Source: a virus. Taken from it: 44,112 nucleotides of DNA. The stretch spans positions 1-44,112 of the IMG/VR virus record IMGVR_UViG_3300029558_000015. One strand, written 5' to 3'. The notes beneath the pieces are model-generated. The model had not been told where the DNA came from and ran no database searches. It saw only the letters and a program-made list of their open reading frames with translations. This document shows positions 7,784 to 42,287 of the stretch, one piece after another. Numbering within the stretch: the stretch's first letter is position 1; the number at the start of each line of letters is the position of its first letter. Position numbers and translations under genes: made by a program.

Positions 7784-8013
7784 GCTGTCTTCCCTCCTTC
7801 TTCCCTATATTCAATGTCCAGAATCTTGCAGATGCTCTGAATAACCTTCGGCGCGCTTCTGTCGCCGTGCAGAATTTTGTACATGTAGCTGTCATCAACG
7901 TACAGCCCTGTATCCTGCTTCACAAGGTCAATCAGTTCTACCTGCTTCATTCCCCGCTTGAGCATTGCAATTTTCGCTTCTAAGCCAAACGGGGATAATG
8001 CGGTTTCTCTCAA
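7780..8013 (-). CDS. Cro-like XRE-family HTH regulator (77 aa, TTG start)
   Basis: TTG at 8013 lies 7 nt after AAAGGAGGT. HTH segment MKQVELIDLVKQDTGLYVDDSYMYKILHG. The longer ATG ORF to 8172 would run through the promoter/operator region. Confidence 0.7.
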   Translation of the reverse strand: MRETALSPFGLEAKIAMLKRGMKQVELIDLVKQDTGLYVDDSYMYKILHGDRSAPKVIQSICKILDIEYREEGGKTA

Positions 8014-11035: not shown

Positions 11036-12166
11036 ATGAAATGTATCAGATGCCATGTAAGCATTCCAGACAAGGCCTTATTTTGCCCGTGGTGCGGAAA
11101 GCAGCAGGGTGCAACGTCCGCTCCCGTGCATAGAAAAAAGCGCCGCCGCCCAAAGGGCAGCGGTAGCGTGTACAAGCTGAAAGGGGTCCGGGCAAGGCCC
11201 TATGTAGCCGTGACCGGGAAAAAGGAAGTGCTGGGCACATACGGAACGCCCGGGGAAGCCGTCCAGGCGCTTGACGCATACAACGCCCAGAACACCCCGG
11301 CAGAGCGTCTGAAGTGTACTTTTGCGGATGCCTACGAAAAATGGCGGGCACAGCCGAAGTTTTCAAGTCTCAGCCGGGACATGATAAATGGATACGAGCT
11401 GGCTTTCAAAAAAGCCGCTCCGCTGTACAGCCGACAAATGCGAGACCTGAAAGCGGAGGACTATCAGCAGATCATAGACCAAATGGTCGCAGACGGTCTC
11501 TCCCGCAGCTCGTGTGAGAAGCAGCGCACCCTTTTCAGCCAGCTATGTGAGTGGGCAATGGCCCAGGACATCATTAACAAGAACTATGCCCAGCTCCTTC
11601 ACCTTCCCGCCGCAGCCGGAAAGGCAGAGCGTACCCTTACGGCGGACGAGATTGCCCGGATCAGCGCCTACCAGACCGACAAGCGCTTTGGTCAGACAGC
11701 GCAGATTGCTATGGTGCTTCTCTATACAGGAATGCGCATCGATGAGCTGCTCTCCATGCGCTGCGAGAACGTGTACCTGAAAGAGCACTATATGCAGGGC
11801 GGTGAAAAAACGGAAGCGGGCAAAAACCGCATCATCCCCATTCTCGACCCCATTTACAAGATCATCGCCTTCTGGATGATGGACAGCGGGTGCGAGTGGC
11901 TGATACCTTCCAAGGCTGGAACGAAACTGGACAAGAGAAACGTGGCCACGAAGTTTCGGGCCTTGATGCAGGAGTGCCAGATCGATGGCGTGCACCCGCA
12001 CACCCTTCGCCACACGGCCAGCAGCAAGATGGTGGAGTGCGGTCTTGAAAAGACCGCCGTGCAGGCTATCCTCGGCCACAAAAATTTTTCCACCACAGCA
12101 AACAAGTACGTTTCCCACAACGACCCGACATACTTGTTACAGGAGATGCAAAAAATGAAATACTGA
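11036..12166 (+). CDS. int: Tyrosine site-specific integrase with N-terminal zinc ribbon
   Basis: C-terminal catalytic region HTLRHTASSKMVE...ILGHKNFSTTANKYVSH. N-terminus CIRCHVSIPDKALFCPWCG. AAAGGAG RBS. Confidence 0.93.
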   Translation: MKCIRCHVSIPDKALFCPWCGKQQGATSAPVHRKKRRRPKGSGSVYKLKGVRARPYVAVTGKKEVLGTYGTPGEAVQALDAYNAQNTPAERLKCTFADAYEKWRAQPKFSSLSRDMINGYELAFKKAAPLYSRQMRDLKAEDYQQIIDQMVADGLSRSSCEKQRTLFSQLCEWAMAQDIINKNYAQLLHLPAAAGKAERTLTADEIARISAYQTDKRFGQTAQIAMVLLYTGMRIDELLSMRCENVYLKEHYMQGGEKTEAGKNRIIPILDPIYKIIAFWMMDSGCEWLIPSKAGTKLDKRNVATKFRALMQECQIDGVHPHTLRHTASSKMVECGLEKTAVQAILGHKNFSTTANKYVSHNDPTYLLQEMQKMKY

Positions 12167-27387: not shown

Positions 27388-27580
27388 TTCGTCCCGCCTC
27401 CTTCATCCGCTGGGTCTCCTCTCTGCGCTTTTCCATGGAGTGCAAAGCAAATGCCCTCACCAGCGCCTTTTCACGCACCGGCAGGGCATCGTACTTGCCC
27501 GGGGGCCAGCTGAGGTTAACGAAGCAATAGTAAGCCACCAGCACGTCGATATCCCAGCTGCCCCCGGAGATCAGTTTTTT
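27380..27580 (-). CDS. -1 frameshift extension of the tail assembly chaperone (XkdN/XkdO-type G/GT pair)
   Basis: Slippery A-AAA-AAC at 27580-27574 immediately before the zero-frame stop. The -1 frame stays open for 66 codons (KKLISGGSWDIDVLVAYYC...) and ends overlapping the tape measure ATG. Confidence 0.7.
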   Translation of the reverse strand, partial: KKLISGGSWDIDVLVAYYCFVNLSWPPGKYDALPVREKALVRAFALHSMEKRREETQRMKEAGRNG

Positions 27581-28494: not shown

Positions 28495-29838
28495 TTACGC
28501 CACATCCAGGGTGATATAGATCTTGTTGGTGCTGCCCACGGCCTCGATGGCCAGCGTAATGAGCACGGCATCCTTTGCCTCGCCTGCTTCCACGATGACA
28601 TCCGTCTCGCCGTTGAAGTTCTGGATGCCGCCGGATGCCTGGATCTGATCCAGATATTTGACGATGGCGCTCTTGTACTGGCGGCGGCCGTCCTCGGTGT
28701 TGTCCACAATGCCCACATAGCTCTGGGCGAACTGCTTGTACAGGTCGTTGGCAATGGTGTTGCACAGCCGCATGGTGCGGTTGTAGCGGTACACCTCGCC
28801 GATCTCGCTGGTATAGGTGACCAGAGAGTTGATGTCATACTCCACCCGGACGGTGCCGTCATCGGCGTTGAACACGAACTTGCCTGCATTGATGGCATCC
28901 ACATACTGGTTGTGGGTCATCTTGGGGGAAACGTCCACCGCGTTGGGAACGGCGGCATTCGTCAGGTCGTTGGCGTAGGTCGCTCCGGAAAGCGCACCGC
29001 CGACCCACCAGACGGCTTCCTTCGGGGTCAGGGTGGTTCCATCGTTCATCACCAAACCGCTGCACACGTTGACGATAAAGCGGGTGTCAGGGTTGGTGGC
29101 ATTGGCTTCCACCAGCTGAGAGAAGCGGCCCACTTCGGTGTTCACGCGCTTGATAAAGGTCTCCATCGCGGTTTTTACGGTGGCATCCTCGCCGTCGTAC
29201 AGCATGGAATCGAAGTTGTAGGGCTCGATGTTCGTCAGGTAGGTGCTGTATGCGGAAGAGTTTACCTCGCCGTCTTTGCCGCCGGAAAGCTGGGTGCCGA
29301 CATTTGCAGCCAGAGTGCCCGTGCCGCTGAAATCCACCCAGTCATTGCCGGTCAGGTCTGCAACGGTCTTGCCGGTCTGCTGATCCTTCACCACACCGTC
29401 AACGACCGTGGAGACCTGGAAACTGCCCGCAGGTTCCGTCAGTGCGGTGACGATCACAACGATGTCGTTGCCTCGGGAGCCGGGAAATTTTGCGGTAGCC
29501 GTCAGCGGGGCGATAGTGCCGGTTGCCTTTGCACTGTCTGCAGCGGCCGGGCGGTAAAGCAGCAGCTTGGTGGGTGCTGCGGTGCGGTTGGAGCCGCTAA
29601 AGATCATGGATGCAAATCGATTGTGTGCATCTGTGATGTCGTAACCGGTATAGGGGATCAGGTCTTCCCCGGCGGCGATCTCCATCACCTTGCCGACGGG
29701 CCCCCAGCTCATGGGTTCGCAGATCGTGACCTTGCCGCGGTCGCCAATGGTCAGATTCTGCTGGCTCTTGGAGCGAAATTTGAAGTAAATGCCGGGCCGC
29801 ACCTTGTTCTGTACAGCCCAGGTTCCGCCTGCTGCCAT
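28495..29838 (-). CDS. Contractile tail sheath protein
   Basis: 447 aa. N-terminus MAAGGTWAVQNKVRPGIYFKF is typical of sheath proteins. ATG at 29838 follows GGAAGGAGTG. Confidence 0.85.
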   Translation of the reverse strand: MAAGGTWAVQNKVRPGIYFKFRSKSQQNLTIGDRGKVTICEPMSWGPVGKVMEIAAGEDLIPYTGYDITDAHNRFASMIFSGSNRTAAPTKLLLYRPAAADSAKATGTIAPLTATAKFPGSRGNDIVVIVTALTEPAGSFQVSTVVDGVVKDQQTGKTVADLTGNDWVDFSGTGTLAANVGTQLSGGKDGEVNSSAYSTYLTNIEPYNFDSMLYDGEDATVKTAMETFIKRVNTEVGRFSQLVEANATNPDTRFIVNVCSGLVMNDGTTLTPKEAVWWVGGALSGATYANDLTNAAVPNAVDVSPKMTHNQYVDAINAGKFVFNADDGTVRVEYDINSLVTYTSEIGEVYRYNRTMRLCNTIANDLYKQFAQSYVGIVDNTEDGRRQYKSAIVKYLDQIQASGGIQNFNGETDVIVEAGEAKDAVLITLAIEAVGSTNKIYITLDVA

Positions 29839-39158: not shown

Positions 39159-39599
39159 CTACTTCAAACCGTAGTCGCTTACAATTTTGCTTATTTCTAC
39201 CCTTGATCTCTTCTCAAGCAACGCATCTCTTACATCCATGGTAACGTCATTCACCCGATTCTTCGCTTGAATAATTGCATGAGCGCTTTTAGCTTCGCTC
39301 AGAACGATTCTTGCGGCTTCGACGTTTGCTTTTAGCGTCTGAATTTTTCTCTCGTTAAATTCTCTTCTTCGTGCATCTCTTGGAGAATCCGATTTTTTCT
39401 GAATCTCCAATTTCTGAAGTCGCTCTGCATACTCTTTTTGATATCCCTCGAATGTATTCTTGATCCATCCGTCTCTGATATCTTGCGCATAAGCAATTTG
39501 TTTTGGCGTTCCCTGCAGTTCGGGGAGGTCTCCTCCAAAAGACTTCATTGTGGAATCCCCGCCCGCTCTCGCAGAGCTGCCTGAACCTCGTTTACTCAC
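39159..39599 (-). CDS. Hypothetical protein with N-terminal MSKRGSGSSARA leader (146 aa, GTG start)
   Basis: GTG at 39599 follows GAAAGAAGG and overlaps the DUF4417 stop. The leader peptide is shared with gene 40234-40626. Confidence 0.6.
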   Translation of the reverse strand: MSKRGSGSSARAGGDSTMKSFGGDLPELQGTPKQIAYAQDIRDGWIKNTFEGYQKEYAERLQKLEIQKKSDSPRDARRREFNERKIQTLKANVEAARIVLSEAKSAHAIIQAKNRVNDVTMDVRDALLEKRSRVEISKIVSDYGLK

Positions 39600-40215
39600 G
39601 GTAATGCCTTCTTTCGTATTGAAACGGTTTAATTTTGGTCACGTTCCAGTCAAATTCATCAGGGCATTTGCCATACCACAAGATGCCGCTCGGTTGAAGC
39701 GCTTCCAGCGCCTTACGGCAATGTTTGGCAAAGCATTCCGCTTCGTATGGGTCAGACTGTGTGCCGTGGCTGGAAATGCTCACGATAGCGTTTCTCGGTT
39801 CCCCATCAAAGCACCAGTCATAGCTTTGCTCACCGCACCAGCAGAGCGTCGGGATCACATGGATGCCGTGGGCTTGCCAGTAGGCAGCCAGCCAGTGCTT
39901 TTTGTAGTGCATGAAAAGCTGCACCGCAAGCGGCATATCGCTGTACAGAGAAAAATCCGGAGAACATACCGCGCCGAACTGCTGCAAAAGGGAAATGTAT
40001 TTGTCGGGGTTGTTCCAGAACCGTTCAAACTGGTAATCGTCCTTGTAAAAATGCACGCCCTTTGTGGCCTTGTCTTTGGCAGTCAGGGCGTAGTTTACCG
40101 GAATCCATTCCAGCTTGTCGATTCGGATGTCCGTTTCTGGCTTGATTTCAGGGATGCCATACTTGCCCACGCCCGGAAAAATCATCTTTTCGGTGTTTTC
40201 CATCGGCAGAATCAT
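39592..40215 (-). CDS. DUF4417 domain protein
   Basis: HFYKDDYQFERFWNNPDKY...PDFSLYSDMP...WLAAYWQAHGIHVIPTLCW matches my recollection of the DUF4417 consensus. GGAGGGG RBS. Confidence 0.65.
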   Translation of the reverse strand: MILPMENTEKMIFPGVGKYGIPEIKPETDIRIDKLEWIPVNYALTAKDKATKGVHFYKDDYQFERFWNNPDKYISLLQQFGAVCSPDFSLYSDMPLAVQLFMHYKKHWLAAYWQAHGIHVIPTLCWCGEQSYDWCFDGEPRNAIVSISSHGTQSDPYEAECFAKHCRKALEALQPSGILWYGKCPDEFDWNVTKIKPFQYERRHYRE

Positions 40216-40233: not shown

Positions 40234-40626
40234 TTACTTTTTCTTGAGTTTCCGCCCCGTTTTCCAGTTATACCCGCGTTTTTCAAGAGAGCGGCGTGCT
40301 GCCTGTGTAGATGGGTTGTCAGGATGCCCCTTTGCTTTGCCAAGCAAAACCTCAACACGACTTTTTTCTTTAATTGCGCCAGACGCAACGCCCGCTTTGT
40401 ATTCTGCAATGGCAGCTTCTCTTTTTGCAGAATATTTTGCGGCGGCTTCATGGGCTTCTTTTTGCATCTTCTCAGTTTGTCTGCGTGTCAAACCGTGAGG
40501 AATACGCATTTTATCATCCATGTAATCACTGATGGGCGAACTCAGTCCACGTTTTGCAAGAAATTCATCAAGCGTAGTCTTTCCGCTACTTGCCCTTGTG
40601 GAACTACCAGACCCGCGTTTACTCAT
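40234..40626 (-). CDS. Basic hypothetical protein with N-terminal MSKRGSGSSTRA leader (130 aa)
   Basis: ATG at 40626 follows GAAAGGAGAG. First gene after the RNA island. Confidence 0.6.
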   Translation of the reverse strand: MSKRGSGSSTRASSGKTTLDEFLAKRGLSSPISDYMDDKMRIPHGLTRRQTEKMQKEAHEAAAKYSAKREAAIAEYKAGVASGAIKEKSRVEVLLGKAKGHPDNPSTQAARRSLEKRGYNWKTGRKLKKK

Positions 40627-40689
40627 TCTTGGCACTCTCCTTTCTGCGTTTATGGCTTTTCTTCCAGAAAATAAAAAGCCCGAAATTGC

Positions 40690-40719
40690 TCAAGCTAAAT
40701 CTCAAGCTATTTCAAGCTA
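40690..40719 (-). repeat. Three tandem direct repeats TAGCTTGA (minus sense), spaced 12 and 10 nt
   Basis: Plus-strand TCAAGCTA at 40690, 40702 and 40712. Lies between the tRNA-like 3' end and the packaging operon. Confidence 0.8.
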
Positions 40720-40730
40720 AAAATCACGGT

Positions 40731-40885
40731 AGCCGTCAGCCGGATTTGAACCGGCACCCACAGGCCCCCGCCGGGGCATGGTTCAGTGCCTCGGATGTAT
40801 CGAGTTGTTGTAAGCTAGCCATGTGGTGTCACCAACGTTGTCCCGCCTTAAATGGGCGGCGCTCTGCCAGTTGAGCTATGACGGC
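40731..40885 (-). tRNA. 155-nt tRNA-like gene: canonical acceptor, D and T arms, anticodon-like loop CAUUUAA (A at position 33), 87-nt insertion at the variable-loop position
   Basis: GCCGTCA TA GCTC AACTGGCA GAGC G CCGCC CATTTAA GGCGG [87 nt] GCCGG TTCAAAT CCGGC TGACGGC T. The acceptor stem pairs 7 of 7. No encoded CCA. Confidence 0.6.
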
Positions 40886-41007
40886 ATATAAGCAGCAACG
40901 CCATTATCTGCTTTTACCGGACAGTAAGACGTTGCCGCTGCATCTGGAACTTTAGCGGCCAGATGCCCCGCTACTCTCTGCATGCTGTCCCCCGGTCATG
41001 CAAAGTC

Positions 41008-41083
41008 TGGCACTCCAGGCAGGGCTCGAACCTGCAGCCTACGGTTTTGGAGACCGCTGCTCTACCACTTGAGCTGCCGGAGT
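41008..41083 (-). tRNA. tRNA-Trp (anticodon CCA), 76 nt with encoded CCA
   Basis: Hand-folded cloverleaf: ACTCCGG CA GCTC AAGTGGTA GAGC A GCGGT CTCCAAA ACCGT AGGCT GCAGG TTCGAGC CCTGC CTGGAGT G CCA. A1-U72 and G73 as in bacterial tRNA-Trp. Confidence 0.88.
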
Positions 41084-41089
41084 ATAAAA

Positions 41090-41158
41090 AGCCGCCCTTG
41101 GAATCGAACCAGCCGTGCCTACACACACGCACCGCGCTCCACATTGCGCTCAGGCGGC
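41090..41158 (-). ncRNA. Degenerate 69-nt tRNA-like element (good acceptor and D arms and T loop; aberrant anticodon arm with a GU-repeat loop; weak T stem)
   Basis: GCCGCCT GA GCGC AATGTGGA GCGC ... GTGC GTGTGTGTAG GCAC ... GGTTCGATTCC ... GGGCGGC T. Confidence 0.45.
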
Positions 41159-41166
41159 CATATAGC

Positions 41167-41201
41167 AAATAAAAACAGCCCGCGGTTCGCCGCCGGGGCT
41201 G
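41167..41201 (-). terminator. Rho-independent terminator closing the upstream RNA
   Basis: Minus sense CAGCCCCGGCGGCGAACCGCGGGCTG followed by TTTTTATTT. Confidence 0.7.
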
Positions 41202-41561
41202 CTTGAGTTGACGCACATCCTGCGGGGCATGCTGGCCCGCTCGGATTTCCGGTGCTGCTGTTCACGGGCGGAGGTTTCAGGGCGTGGGCAAGATTTCAGG
41301 AGTCCCACACCCACCCGCACACCGGTGGTGAATCACTCCATGCGTCAGATCTGCCGCGTTACAGACTTTGCGGCGTTCGGTGCGAGATCGTGGACTTGCA
41401 CCACGCATGATGCTCGATGGTGATATCTCGCATAGAAGCAGCCCGCAAAGCGCGGTGTCAAAGCGAAAAGCGTTAAGCGGCATGAACGAAAGGAGAATTC
41501 GTACGGGGCCGCGCTTTGGAAGCTGCTGAGAAGCGGCGCACCGCTTTGCGCGGTTCCGCTT
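41167..41561 (-). ncRNA. Candidate ~395-nt structured non-coding RNA (possible ROOL/GOLLD-like ornate phage RNA; unverified)
   Basis: No RBS-supported ORF. Bounded by a promoter and a terminator. Helices seen: 41381-88/41425-32 (8 bp), T-arm-like CGTGG TGCAAGT CCACG at 41389-41405, 41531-36/41556-61, 41299-303/41335-39, and several CCGC-GCAAA-GCGG type hairpins. Confidence 0.5.
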
Positions 41562-41567
41562 GTAGTC

Positions 41568-41609
41568 ATTTTACCACACTTCGATTCACATGTGTTTCAC
41601 AACGATTCA
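41568..41609 (-). promoter_or_regulatory. Extended -10 promoter (TGgTAAAAT) with poor -35 and two TGAATCG repeats 21 nt apart (activator-dependent late promoter candidate)
   Basis: Minus sense TGGTAAAAT at 41576-41568. TGAATCG at 41588-41582 and 41609-41603. Directly downstream of the late regulator gene. Confidence 0.5.
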
Positions 41610-41635
41610 AATAAAGCGTAGAAATCAAAGCGCTT

Positions 41636-42136
41636 TCAATGGTCGTTTTGTACATCCTCCCAGATTTCTGCCAAAGCATCAAACCCCTCGTGGATGTAGG
41701 TAGAGACCGAATTGTCTCTGGACAAGCCCACGTCCACCGCGATCTTCTTTTGGGGCTTCAGGTCGATATACCAGCCGCAGATGCACTTTGCTTGCTTTTC
41801 AGACCGAGCAGACCCGCTCAGGCAGTAGGCCCGCCGGGCAGCTTCGATGCGCAGTTCACAGAGATCAAGCTCCATCTGCTTGAGGTTCCGCTCTTCTGTA
41901 TCGATTCTCTCCACGGCAAAGCCCACCTTGTCACCGGTTCCACCGCCCATCGGCATCCCGCTCATGCTCTGGGTGCACTTTTCGGCAGTATCCCGGATAC
42001 GCTGGATCTTCTGCTTTTGGGCCTCGACCTGCTCCGCCAGGTCTCTGCACTGCTGGAACCACGCCTTTACCTCGCGATAGTCCACACCGGTGCGGGGTTT
42101 TGGTTGTTCGCTTTCAGGTGTCCATGTGCGGGTCAT
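41636..42136 (-). CDS. Late transcriptional regulator, DUF1492 / sigma-70 region-4-like (166 aa)
   Basis: ATG at 42136 lies 6 nt after GGAGGAAAGCG. Coiled-coil N-terminus and C-terminal HTH KCICGWYIDLKPQKKIAVDVGLSRDNSVSTYIHEGFDAL. Confidence 0.6.
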   Translation of the reverse strand: MTRTWTPESEQPKPRTGVDYREVKAWFQQCRDLAEQVEAQKQKIQRIRDTAEKCTQSMSGMPMGGGTGDKVGFAVERIDTEERNLKQMELDLCELRIEAARRAYCLSGSARSEKQAKCICGWYIDLKPQKKIAVDVGLSRDNSVSTYIHEGFDALAEIWEDVQNDH

Positions 42137-42287
42137 CGCTTTCCTCCTCAAACGTGCATTTTACGGCGGGACTACCGATTTCGTAAACGACAACGTTCTT
42201 GATTTTATCGGCGATACCCCGCGCAACCAGAAGATTAACAGTTCCCTCTTCGGTCATGTTTGCTTGAATCCAAATTTCCCCGATCAT
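42114..42287 (-). CDS. Small hypothetical protein (57 aa), absent from the ORF track
   Basis: ATG at 42287 makes an ATGA overlap with the rusA stop. The frame is open to 42114. Confidence 0.45.
   Translation of the reverse strand: MIGEIWIQANMTEEGTVNLLVARGIADKIKNVVVYEIGSPAVKCTFEEESDDPHMDT

Follow-up and report, generated by a model that had tools for sequence, protein, structure and literature searches.

A phage-encoded, tRNA-derived RNA with a lysine-type anticodon loop carrying A33 and a large folded domain in its variable region

The viral record IMGVR_UViG_3300029558_000015 of the IMG/VR database, analysed here over its whole 44,112 nucleotides (nt; hereafter the window), represents a temperate myovirus. 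It encodes an integrase (11036–12166), a repressor, an anti-repressor, RecT, SSB, RusA and a late activator (41636–42151), together with the late genes for TerL, portal, protease, major head protein, sheath, tube, an XkdN-like chaperone, baseplate proteins and endolysin. About 1 kb of non-coding DNA separates the late activator gene from the packaging genes, and all of these are transcribed from the minus strand. This DNA contains the element studied here, a gene of 155 nt for a transfer RNA (tRNA)-like RNA (40731–40885, minus strand), whose nucleotide G1 is located at 40885 and whose discriminator, a U, is located at 40731; no CCA is encoded. In the 5′ to 3′ direction, the window copy reads GCCGUCA-UA-GCUC-AACUGGCA-GAGC-G-CCGCC-CAUUUAA-GGCGG-[87 nt]-GCCGG-UUCAAAU-CCGGC-UGACGGC-U. 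A preceding sequence-only reading of the window had described a tRNA-like gene with an 87-nt insertion and an odd anticodon loop, and all of these features were found, on the minus strand, in the sequence itself, in an Rfam search and in a single-sequence fold.

The body of the RNA is a regular cloverleaf with helices of 7, 4, 5 and 5 base pairs. The 5′ strand of the acceptor stem, GCCGUCA (40879–40885), forms 7 of 7 pairs with UGACGGC (40732–40738) and is followed by U8-A9, by the D arm (40861–40876; GCUC and GAGC enclosing a loop with G18G19) and by the anticodon arm CCGCC-CAUUUAA-GGCGG (40843–40859; loop 40848–40854). The T arm, GCCGG-UUCAAAU-CCGGC, occupies 40739–40755. The acceptor stem, U8-A9, D arm and T arm agree with the earlier description, and the Rfam tRNA model RF00005 matches the gene with 45.9 bits (E = 9e-7, whole window searched) over model positions 1–71. 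The single break in this alignment is a long insertion placed after the anticodon stem, which corresponds to the 87-nt variable-region domain between the anticodon and T stems (40756–40842; RNA positions 44–130). Plain ARAGORN gave no call for the element at 40885–40731.

Pattern scans of IMG/VR retrieved at least about 176 copies of this gene, with 121 distinct sequences among the matches listed, and the element is present on more than 170 independent viral or metagenome-assembled genome (MAG) contigs from many samples, far more often than chance would allow. The GenBank phage records contain one relative, MT839005.1 (locus L001), an unannotated human-faecal scaffold which carries the same tRNA-like gene with the same loop but with a 68-nt insert. 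The carriers among the copies found are temperate Faecalibacterium phages and prophages. Since the true copies in bacterial genome contigs are in Faecalibacterium MAGs, plus one bin labelled Oxalobacter, the host of these phages is very probably Faecalibacterium.

In the set of 121 distinct sequences, pairing amounts to 99–100% in the acceptor, D, anticodon and T helices, with 100% in the T arm, and the comparison of homologous phage loci proposed by the sequence-only reading revealed compensatory changes in every helix. In the acceptor stem, pair 5 alternates between U-G, U-A and C-G, pair 6 between C-G, U-A and U-G, and pair 7 between A-U, G-C and G-U. D pair 2 is either C-G or U-A, T pair 2 either C-G or G-C, and T pair 3 is C-G in 41, U-A in 69 and U-G in 11 sequences. 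Acceptor pairs 1–4 and the T arm are invariant or compensated. These compensatory changes show RNA-level selection on the tRNA body. A degenerate tRNA pseudogene or an assembly artefact, the latter already considered in the sequence-only reading, might be suspected because standard ARAGORN does not call the gene and position 33 is non-canonical. However, the recurrence on more than 170 contigs from many samples, the six insert types, the covariation and a diversity below that of a genuine neighbouring tRNA refute this explanation, which retains a negligible probability. Almost certainly, the element is a genuine RNA derived from a tRNA and kept by selection, and its structured domain is an integral part of it. 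No Rfam family except tRNA matches it, and the literature searched contains no description of a tRNA-like RNA of such build; it is a tRNA-derived RNA of an architecture without earlier description.

Sequence diversity was calculated as the mean pairwise difference within 113 loci carrying the commonest insert type, type A. The values for the element were 0.039 in the 5′ half, 0.034 in the insert and 0.054 in the T arm plus acceptor strand, compared with 0.126 in the neighbouring tRNA-Trp gene, 0.271 in the spacer between both genes and about 0.5 in the flanks. The search anchors, which fixed 17–29 of 136 nt, account for part of the low diversity, but they cannot explain it alone because the contrast with tRNA-Trp, spacer and flanks is too large. 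This island of conservation is sharply bounded, and its edges coincide with the ends of the acceptor stem. Immediately outside, the discriminator is unconstrained family-wide (U in 63, A in 55, G in 2 and C in 1 of the distinct sequences), with a flank-like pairwise difference of 0.53. The suggestion of the sequence-only reading that the gene could be a tRNA-like domain of a larger RNA is not supported, as conservation breaks off exactly where the acceptor stem ends, and variation at the discriminator and in the flanks is about as high as in unrelated sequence.

In the window copy, the anticodon loop consists of C32 A33 U34 U35 U36 A37 A38 on a stem of five G-C pairs, with A33 at 40853. This loop is identical to the bacterial tRNA-Lys(UUU) loop CUUUUAA except for the replacement of U33 by A. 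As the first scans had fixed the anticodon arm, the census was repeated with an anchor inside the type-A insert and the arm left free. CAUUUAA was recovered in 116 of the 116 type-A copies listed from this insert-anchored census, in which no other block of the gene is as well conserved as CCCAUUUAAGGCGGGAC. When the loop was left free in the scan, the sole alternative among the matches listed was GAGUUAA, found in 6 phages, which corresponds to a tRNA-Asn(GUU) loop where A has replaced U33 and G has replaced C32. The loop consensus is N-A-N-U-U-A-A, where A33 and 35-UUAA-38 are fixed and position 34 is U or G. The earlier assignment of a Lys(UUU)-like loop with A33 is correct, and it is strengthened by this natural Asn(GUU)-like variant, which also has A33. 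The CCGCC/GGCGG stem itself is common in ordinary phage tRNAs (Asp, Asn, Met, Ile and others); these almost always keep U33, and none of those among the matches listed has CAUUUAA. A33 is therefore a property of the tRNA-like family and not of the stem. The element is derived from a phage tRNA-Lys(UUU)-type gene.

The domain in the variable region occurs in six types of 53–87 nt, which share the same position and one common plan: type A (68 nt, one copy 53 nt), type B (69 nt), type C (82–87 nt; the type of the window), types D and E (68 nt each) and type F (65 nt). It starts with G44-(A/U)-CA(A)C and continues with a mini-hairpin R-(YUGRNGA)-Y, one A and a long irregular arm closed by a helix, before G-U48 leads into the T stem. 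The mini-hairpin of the window is G50-(UUGGUGA)-C58 (40828–40836), with a 7-nt loop of the YUNR type and the family consensus YUGRNGA. Its closing R:Y pair covaries, being G:C in 95, A:U in 23 and G:U in 1 of the distinct sequences with no mismatches, and both the G:C and A:U states are seen within type A. The YUNR motif is typical of U-turn loops that make fast RNA–RNA contacts.

The structure of the long arm (40757–40826) was derived with RNAalifold from 15 type-C sequences, giving helices 60–64/124–128, 66–69/120–123, 82–85/116–119, 92–94/113–115 and 96–98/109–111. Pair 66:123 appears as G-C, U-G, C-G and U-A, while pairs 64:124 and 84:117 change on both sides. The hairpin GCCCC-GGCG-GGGGC, pointed out in the sequence-only reading, is present in the minimum-energy fold of the single sequence but is not favoured by the 15-sequence consensus. 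The apical loop of the arm, ACUGAACCAU (40778–40787; type-C consensus ACU(U/G)AACCA), contains an ACC triplet (40780–40782) which we propose as tertiary partner of the GGU triplet in the YUNR loop (40831–40833). The two loops carry complementary triplets in 6 of 6 insert types, with GGU:ACC in types A, B and C, GAU:AUC in types E and F, and GAC:GUC in type D; counting related types once, this would occur by chance with a probability of about 4e-4. Single variants within a type (loci L129, L112, L017 and L119) are not compensated. The evidence for a loop–loop pseudoknot that would fold the arm back on its base is good but not conclusive.

Other structures considered for the insert were rejected. 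A local hairpin G(A/U)CA-loop-UG(G/A)U that would take the place of the YUNR loop is weaker than the R:Y pair and is broken in L014 and L142. A K-turn or box C-D motif in YUGRNGA lacks an opposing GA strand, as the T stem follows directly on the arm, and for a T-loop motif the U...A spacing does not fit. The hammerhead-like CUGAUGA is found in type E, but the sequence is mostly UUGGUGA, which breaks the catalytic core; GAA and a rightly placed stem III are missing, and no Rfam ribozyme matches. Kissing between the anticodon loop and an insert loop (UUAA:UUAA) would be possible in types B and C and is impossible in the commonest type A. A small open reading frame (ORF) in the type-C insert (AUG...UGA, 28 codons) is absent from the other types. 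In one type-A copy (L061, IMGVR_UViG_3300045988_004472), the 3′ side of the arm is the exact complement of its 5′ side (GGAACAUCACUGC...GCAGUGAUGUUCC), so that the irregular arm has become a perfect hairpin; this looks like a template-switch or gene-conversion event.

From a second GGCGG inside the window insert, the sequence-only reading had suggested that the insert might be an intron, removal of whose 87 nt would leave a normal-sized tRNA. When introns are permitted, ARAGORN indeed forces a tRNA-Gly(GCC) with a 75-nt intron onto the window copy. The second GGCGG does exist, but only in type C (15 of 17 type-C sequences versus 0 of 104 others), and the alternative pairing is restricted to this type. 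Moreover, the intron mode assigns nine isotypes (Val, Gly, Stop, Leu, Lys, Glu, Asp, Cys and Gln) to different copies with strained folds that disrupt the invariant CCGCC/GGCGG stem; the commonest of these folds, Val(tac) in type A, destroys the perfect D stem along with the anticodon stem. The insert lies in the variable region instead of the anticodon loop, is conserved like the supposed exons, has conserved internal structure, and matches no group I, group II or other intron or ribozyme family in Rfam; bacteria are not known to have the splicing endonuclease of archaea and eukaryotes. An intron is therefore very improbable.

The insert is missing in one of the approximately 176 copies listed. 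This copy (L183) is on the minus strand of the Faecalibacterium MAG contig CAKSXW010000001.1 at about 7879–7959 and has a short D loop, a 13-nt variable region and a U discriminator followed by CCA. It is called tRNA-Lys(UUU) by ARAGORN, and it represents an imprecise deletion which keeps both insert ends (GGGAC...GUGUGGGU), again in disagreement with precise intron removal. An HNH-endonuclease-like gene directly follows this copy. A metagenome-wide scan for further insert-less copies yielded one chance hairpin only, the viral scan yielded only ordinary tRNAs among the matches listed, and a scan for the same architecture on another anticodon stem returned family members only. As it is conserved like the tRNA body, with purifying selection of equal strength, and absent from one copy only, the insert is integral and not dispensable.

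In all copies examined, the element is situated in the leader of the packaging operon, and the next gene downstream is that of the small terminase subunit (terS) in 113 loci. No partner protein is evident there: the downstream gene is terS or, in the window, a DUF4417 gene together with genes of no assigned function. The constant position directly upstream of terS or packaging genes and behind the late activator gene, together with the very high DNA conservation in a mosaic region, would also suit a cis-acting late-operon element, either a tRNA-shaped processing signal, with an entry site for RNase P and RNase Z, or a DNA packaging or regulatory site, whose likeness to a tRNA would be incidental. 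However, the compensatory changes show that selection acts on the RNA. RNase P and RNase Z depend on the acceptor and T arms and require neither an invariant anticodon loop nor an elaborate variable domain, and it is precisely the anticodon loop and variable domain that are most conserved. This makes a cis-acting element quite improbable. Two related proposals were discarded. An attachment site (attP) is not compatible with an integrase gene 29 kb away and with the presence of a whole tRNA-like gene instead of just a 3′ half, and a phi29-like packaging RNA does not suit a terminase-using myovirus.

The usual upstream neighbour is a canonical tRNA-Trp(CCA) gene (41008–41083, minus strand; called by ARAGORN and by Rfam with 59.3 bits), which adjoins the element in nearly all related loci examined. 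Upstream of tRNA-Trp, a second odd tRNA-like sequence (41090–41159, minus strand) shows an acceptor stem, a D arm and a weak T arm in the order GCCGCCU-GA-GCGC-AAUGUGGA-GCGC-G-GUGC(GUGUGUGUAG)GCAC-GG-CUGGUUCGAUUCCAA-GGGCGGC. It has neither a normal anticodon loop nor a variable loop, and its only match is a sub-threshold one to tRNA-Sec (18.9 bits, E = 0.67). As this sequence is kept in at least 129 related loci, with two variants of the central arm, we regard the two non-canonical tRNA-like genes and tRNA-Trp as one cassette. The 122-nt spacer between tRNA-Trp and the element (40886–41007, minus strand) contains three possible hairpins and is about 77% identical in MT839005.1. Its diversity of 0.27, between that of the RNA genes and the flanks, suggests that it may be a structured processing spacer.

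[quoted passage not shown] These accessory tRNAs all have A73 and share an almost uniform body, GCCGYUUUAGCUCAG...AAGCGGCA, in many cases with an encoded CCA. This indicates that anticodons have been switched within a lineage of phage tRNAs confined to ANN codons. Among the phage genes scanned, neither an RNA ligase nor a synthetase nor any other enzyme acting on tRNA was detected.

Further features of the surrounding DNA were recorded. Just downstream of the element there are three direct copies of TAGCTTGA (minus-strand reading) at 40712–40719, 40702–40709 and 40690–40697, with a spacing of 10–12 nt, followed by a terminator-like hairpin; they could form a protein-binding array, for instance for the small terminase or a regulator. 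Next comes a 133-amino acid ORF (40234–40635, minus strand) with no family match, and then the DUF4417 gene (39592–40215, minus strand; Pfam 180.7 bits), whose product falls into a PHROG family annotated as 'nuclease'. The latter gene sits between the element and the terminase genes, at the place that terS or an HNH endonuclease occupies in many relatives. The late activator gene is separated from the RNA cassette by about 400 nt (about 41170–41635, minus strand) which contain no convincing ORF and end in a GC-rich hairpin with a U-run (GCAGCCCCGGCGGCGAACCGCGGGCUGUUUUUAUUU). This region has no Rfam match and may represent a long leader or a further non-coding RNA.

To judge whether the RNA could serve in translation, its features were compared with those of elongator tRNAs. 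The cloverleaf with covarying helices is that of a tRNA, and in types A–C the core tertiary nucleotides are intact (U8, A14, A15-U48, G18G19, A21, G26 and U54-U55-C56). In contrast, G18G19 is missing in types D, E and F and in loci L108 and L183, whose D loops have 5–6 nt (variants AAGCA, AAGUA and AACGCA). The non-proteinogenic tRNA-Gly of Staphylococcus also lacks G18G19 (PMC4574755). Position 33 is A in every copy found, whereas U33 enforces the U-turn and is required for ribosome binding (PMC13276492; PMC11415595). The variable region comprises 53–87 nt in all copies but one, compared with 4–5 nt or an arm of up to about 25 nt in elongator tRNAs, and the discriminator is mostly U or A and as variable as the flanks, whereas this base is conserved within an isoacceptor family and is A73 in all of the neighbouring canonical tRNAs. 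A Spinach aptamer of about 50 nt placed in the V-loop left only marginal tRNA activity, while small hairpins in a long variable arm were tolerated in engineered tRNAs (PMC7590224). Some of the element-bearing phages also carry a canonical tRNA-Lys(UUU), which would make a second decoder redundant. Judged from these features, the element is probably not an ordinary, efficient decoder.

Some decoding functions were considered in view of the loop. A stop-codon suppressor reading with UUA at positions 35–37 was rejected, as alternative codes bring no gain in ORFs and the canonical anticodon is UUU or GUU. Recoding was rejected as well, since the in-frame TAA junctions that looked suspicious are normal ends of genes; the TAA at 28495, for example, is the normal stop of the sheath gene before the tube gene. 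A tmRNA (transfer-messenger RNA) does not apply either: the tmRNA mode of ARAGORN gave none, Rfam gave no tmRNA match, and an anticodon arm is present.

A deliberately inefficient decoder would be another way to account for A33, either as a mistranslating tRNA of dual identity or as a 'shifty' tRNA tuning −1 frameshifting at A_AAA_AAC. Ser, Leu, Tyr and Sec identity are, as is well established, marked by a long extra arm. It has been proposed that Asn and Lys tRNAs are shifty when hypomodified, and A33 would block queuosine insertion at G34 because Tgt needs U33-G34-U35. The XkdN-like tail-chaperone gene of the window (stop at 27571–27573) ends in the slippery heptamer A_AAA_AAC (27580–27574, minus strand), whose codons are read by UUU and GUU anticodons; beyond it, the −1 frame stays open for about 70 codons, as in a classic programmed frameshift. 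This heptamer is invariant in 53 of 53 related phages, one of them at 51% protein identity. Among natural mistranslating tRNAs, the A33 of the element is shared by tRNA-ProX, and Candida tRNA-Ser(CAG) has G33, which is thought to damp decoding (PMC11415595). However, the phage genes scanned include no synthetase and no other enzyme acting on tRNA, and Ser identity is unlikely because G73 is absent and the base of the arm is unlike that of class II tRNAs. Phage tail-chaperone genes often contain heptamers like A_AAA_AAC, and the anticodons for Lys and Asn are adjacent, so that the match, though striking, may be a coincidence; since the heptamer is invariant, no correlation with loop type is obtainable. 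We consider an inefficient decoder improbable.

The sequence-only reading had also listed a decoy or nuclease-resistant Lys-type tRNA, and this remains the best class of explanation, being consistent with all findings as far as sequence comparison goes. tRNA-Lys(UUU) is the recurrent target of the nucleases PrrC, RloC, AriB and RorSlfn5 (PMC12409363; PMC13056530). AriB targets the Lys(UUU), Thr(UGU) and Asn(GUU) tRNAs, reads U36-A-A-U39, cuts between positions 40 and 41 and also touches the D loop, and the resistant tRNA-Lys of phage T5 differs at positions 39, 41 and 16 (PMC12409363). The element keeps U36-A-A but has G39 where AriB reads U39. RorSlfn5 responds to a late protein, namely a tail chaperone (PMC13056530), and the location of the element in a late-operon leader would fit such a trigger.

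Within this class we tentatively favour a processed, stable but poorly decoding mimic of tRNA-Lys/Asn, which would engage a factor that recognizes AAN-decoding tRNAs, most plausibly a defence anticodon nuclease. We lean towards this reading because the anticodon arm is the most constrained part and yet lacks U33, the domain is obligatory, the discriminator is free, and the gene resides in a late operon of phages with accessory Lys, Thr and Met tRNAs. From the anatomy of the locus, we infer that the RNA would be transcribed in the leader of the packaging/late operon and excised at the acceptor-stem ends like a tRNA. It would then fold into an L-shaped tRNA body with an intact anticodon arm of the Lys type, or of the Asn type in a few phages, that invariably has A in place of U33, and with the variable loop replaced by a compact domain of 53–87 nt whose YUNR mini-hairpin contacts the apical loop of the long arm. 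The business end would be the anticodon arm (positions 32–43) plus the first insert nucleotides. With this arm, the RNA may engage a host factor, most plausibly an anticodon nuclease of the Lys(UUU)/Asn(GUU)/Thr(UGU) type, and act as a poorly cleavable competitor or bait for it. A33 and the bulky domain may keep the RNA off the ribosome and/or block cleavage; this role of the insert is a guess.

The closest rival is a shielded, cleavage-resistant decoder, charged with Lys or Asn, which would replace the host tRNA when a defence nuclease destroys it; A33, G39 and the domain next to positions 40–43 would then prevent recognition or cutting. Such a decoder agrees with the complete cloverleaf of types A–C, including U8, A14, A15-U48, G18G19, G26 and the T-loop, and with the exact Lys/Asn loops, in which the anticodon switches between two related amino acids. 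The 36-UAA-38 sequence retained in these loops is the strict t6A37 determinant, and the bacterial enzyme does not need U33 (PMC13276492). It also agrees with the position in a tRNA cluster and with the insert-less copy that ARAGORN calls tRNA-Lys. The resistant tRNA-Lys of T5 differs from that of the host at position 39, just as the element departs from the AriB UAAU motif, and the tolerance of small hairpins in long variable arms mentioned above points the same way. On the other hand, A33 removes the U-turn nucleotide, the discriminator is unconstrained, some lineages lack G18G19, the large V-loop inserts of the engineered tRNAs referred to above were only marginally active, and the RNA would be redundant with the canonical tRNA-Lys(UUU) of some of the same phages. 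Hence, we regard a shielded decoder as rather unlikely.

The intact core of types A–C, the acceptor pairs 1–4 and T arm, the tRNA cluster, the UUU/GUU switch and the ARAGORN call of the insert-less copy all favour a tRNA-like life cycle. Several observations also weigh against the poorly decoding mimic. The invariant acceptor pairs 1–4, the canonical T arm and 36-UAA-38 would equally be needed by a charged, modified and working tRNA, and a switch of the anticodon from UUU to GUU is typical of the evolution of real tRNA genes. Loss of U33 weakens decoding but need not abolish it, as natural tRNAs with A33 or G33 do decode (PMC11415595). Furthermore, no Faecalibacterium tRNase was identified in this analysis and none is encoded next to the element, and the literature searched contains no phage tRNA-like decoy of a tRNase. 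In a more specific form, which is possible but doubtful, the mimic would be an RNA anti-defence factor, a stable, non-decoding copy of the Lys/Asn anticodon arm, armoured by the variable-region domain, that sequesters or blocks the nuclease and forms, with the second tRNA-like gene and tRNA-Trp at the head of the late operon, a 'tRNA counter-measure cassette'.

tRNAs, and tRNA-Lys(UUU) above all, are a main battleground between phages and bacterial immunity systems such as PrrC, RloC, PARIS, retrons and Schlafens. The known answers of phages are repair enzymes and point-mutated replacement tRNAs, to which the element would add a new answer or a new kind of tRNA; if a decoy or frameshift function proves true, it would constitute a new functional class. 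Its folded domain is three to four times as large as any known variable arm, its non-U33 loop is invariant, and in well over 100 phages of a very abundant human gut bacterium its conservation is tighter than that of a genuine tRNA. Nevertheless, it is missed by plain ARAGORN, has no Rfam family of its own and is unannotated in its one GenBank phage record. It also provides a tractable case for studying the effect of A33, whose role in mistranslating tRNAs was described as unexplored in a 2024 review.

Known systems resemble the element in parts. In class II tRNAs (Ser, Leu, bacterial Tyr and Sec) and allo-tRNAs, the arm likewise emerges between positions 44/45 and 48, with one unpaired nucleotide and U48 on the 3′ side and an intact surrounding core. 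However, class II arms total roughly 13–25 nt, compared with 53–87 nt here, where a 15-nt YUNR mini-hairpin element precedes the arm and a pseudoknot is probable. From the Ser type, the element further differs by the absence of G73, by its Lys/Asn anticodon and by A33. [quoted passage not shown] Unlike the element, with its free discriminator, large domain and lack of U33, they are of normal size, keep U33 and have been shown to decode. U33 is also replaced in otherwise well-formed tRNAs, namely bacterial tRNA-ProX (with ProRSx) and Candida tRNA-Ser(CAG), and the anticodons of this group include that of Asn. tRNA-ProX, however, has a dedicated synthetase, A34 and a normal variable loop, whereas the phage genes scanned include no synthetase and a second amino-acid identity is not in evidence. 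The Staphylococcus tRNA-Gly of cell-wall synthesis is kept off the ribosome by changes at conserved positions and lacks G18G19 like types D, E and F and loci L108 and L183, but it is normal-sized, charged and used by Fem transferases, an enzyme class not apparent in the phage.

The reuse of the tRNA shape beyond decoding is likewise known from tmRNA, the bacterial Y RNA YrlA and the stable RNAs C and D of phage T4. Such RNAs are processed by tRNA enzymes, and some of them are phage-encoded. In contrast to the element, tmRNA and YrlA have no true anticodon arm, and their extra RNA is joined elsewhere. The same architecture, a folded module in the variable region, is found in engineered aptamer-tagged tRNAs such as V-arm hairpin fusions and the V-Spinach tRNA. 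Those are synthetic and nearly lose their activity with large inserts, whereas the element, whose domain has no known ligand, is their natural counterpart.

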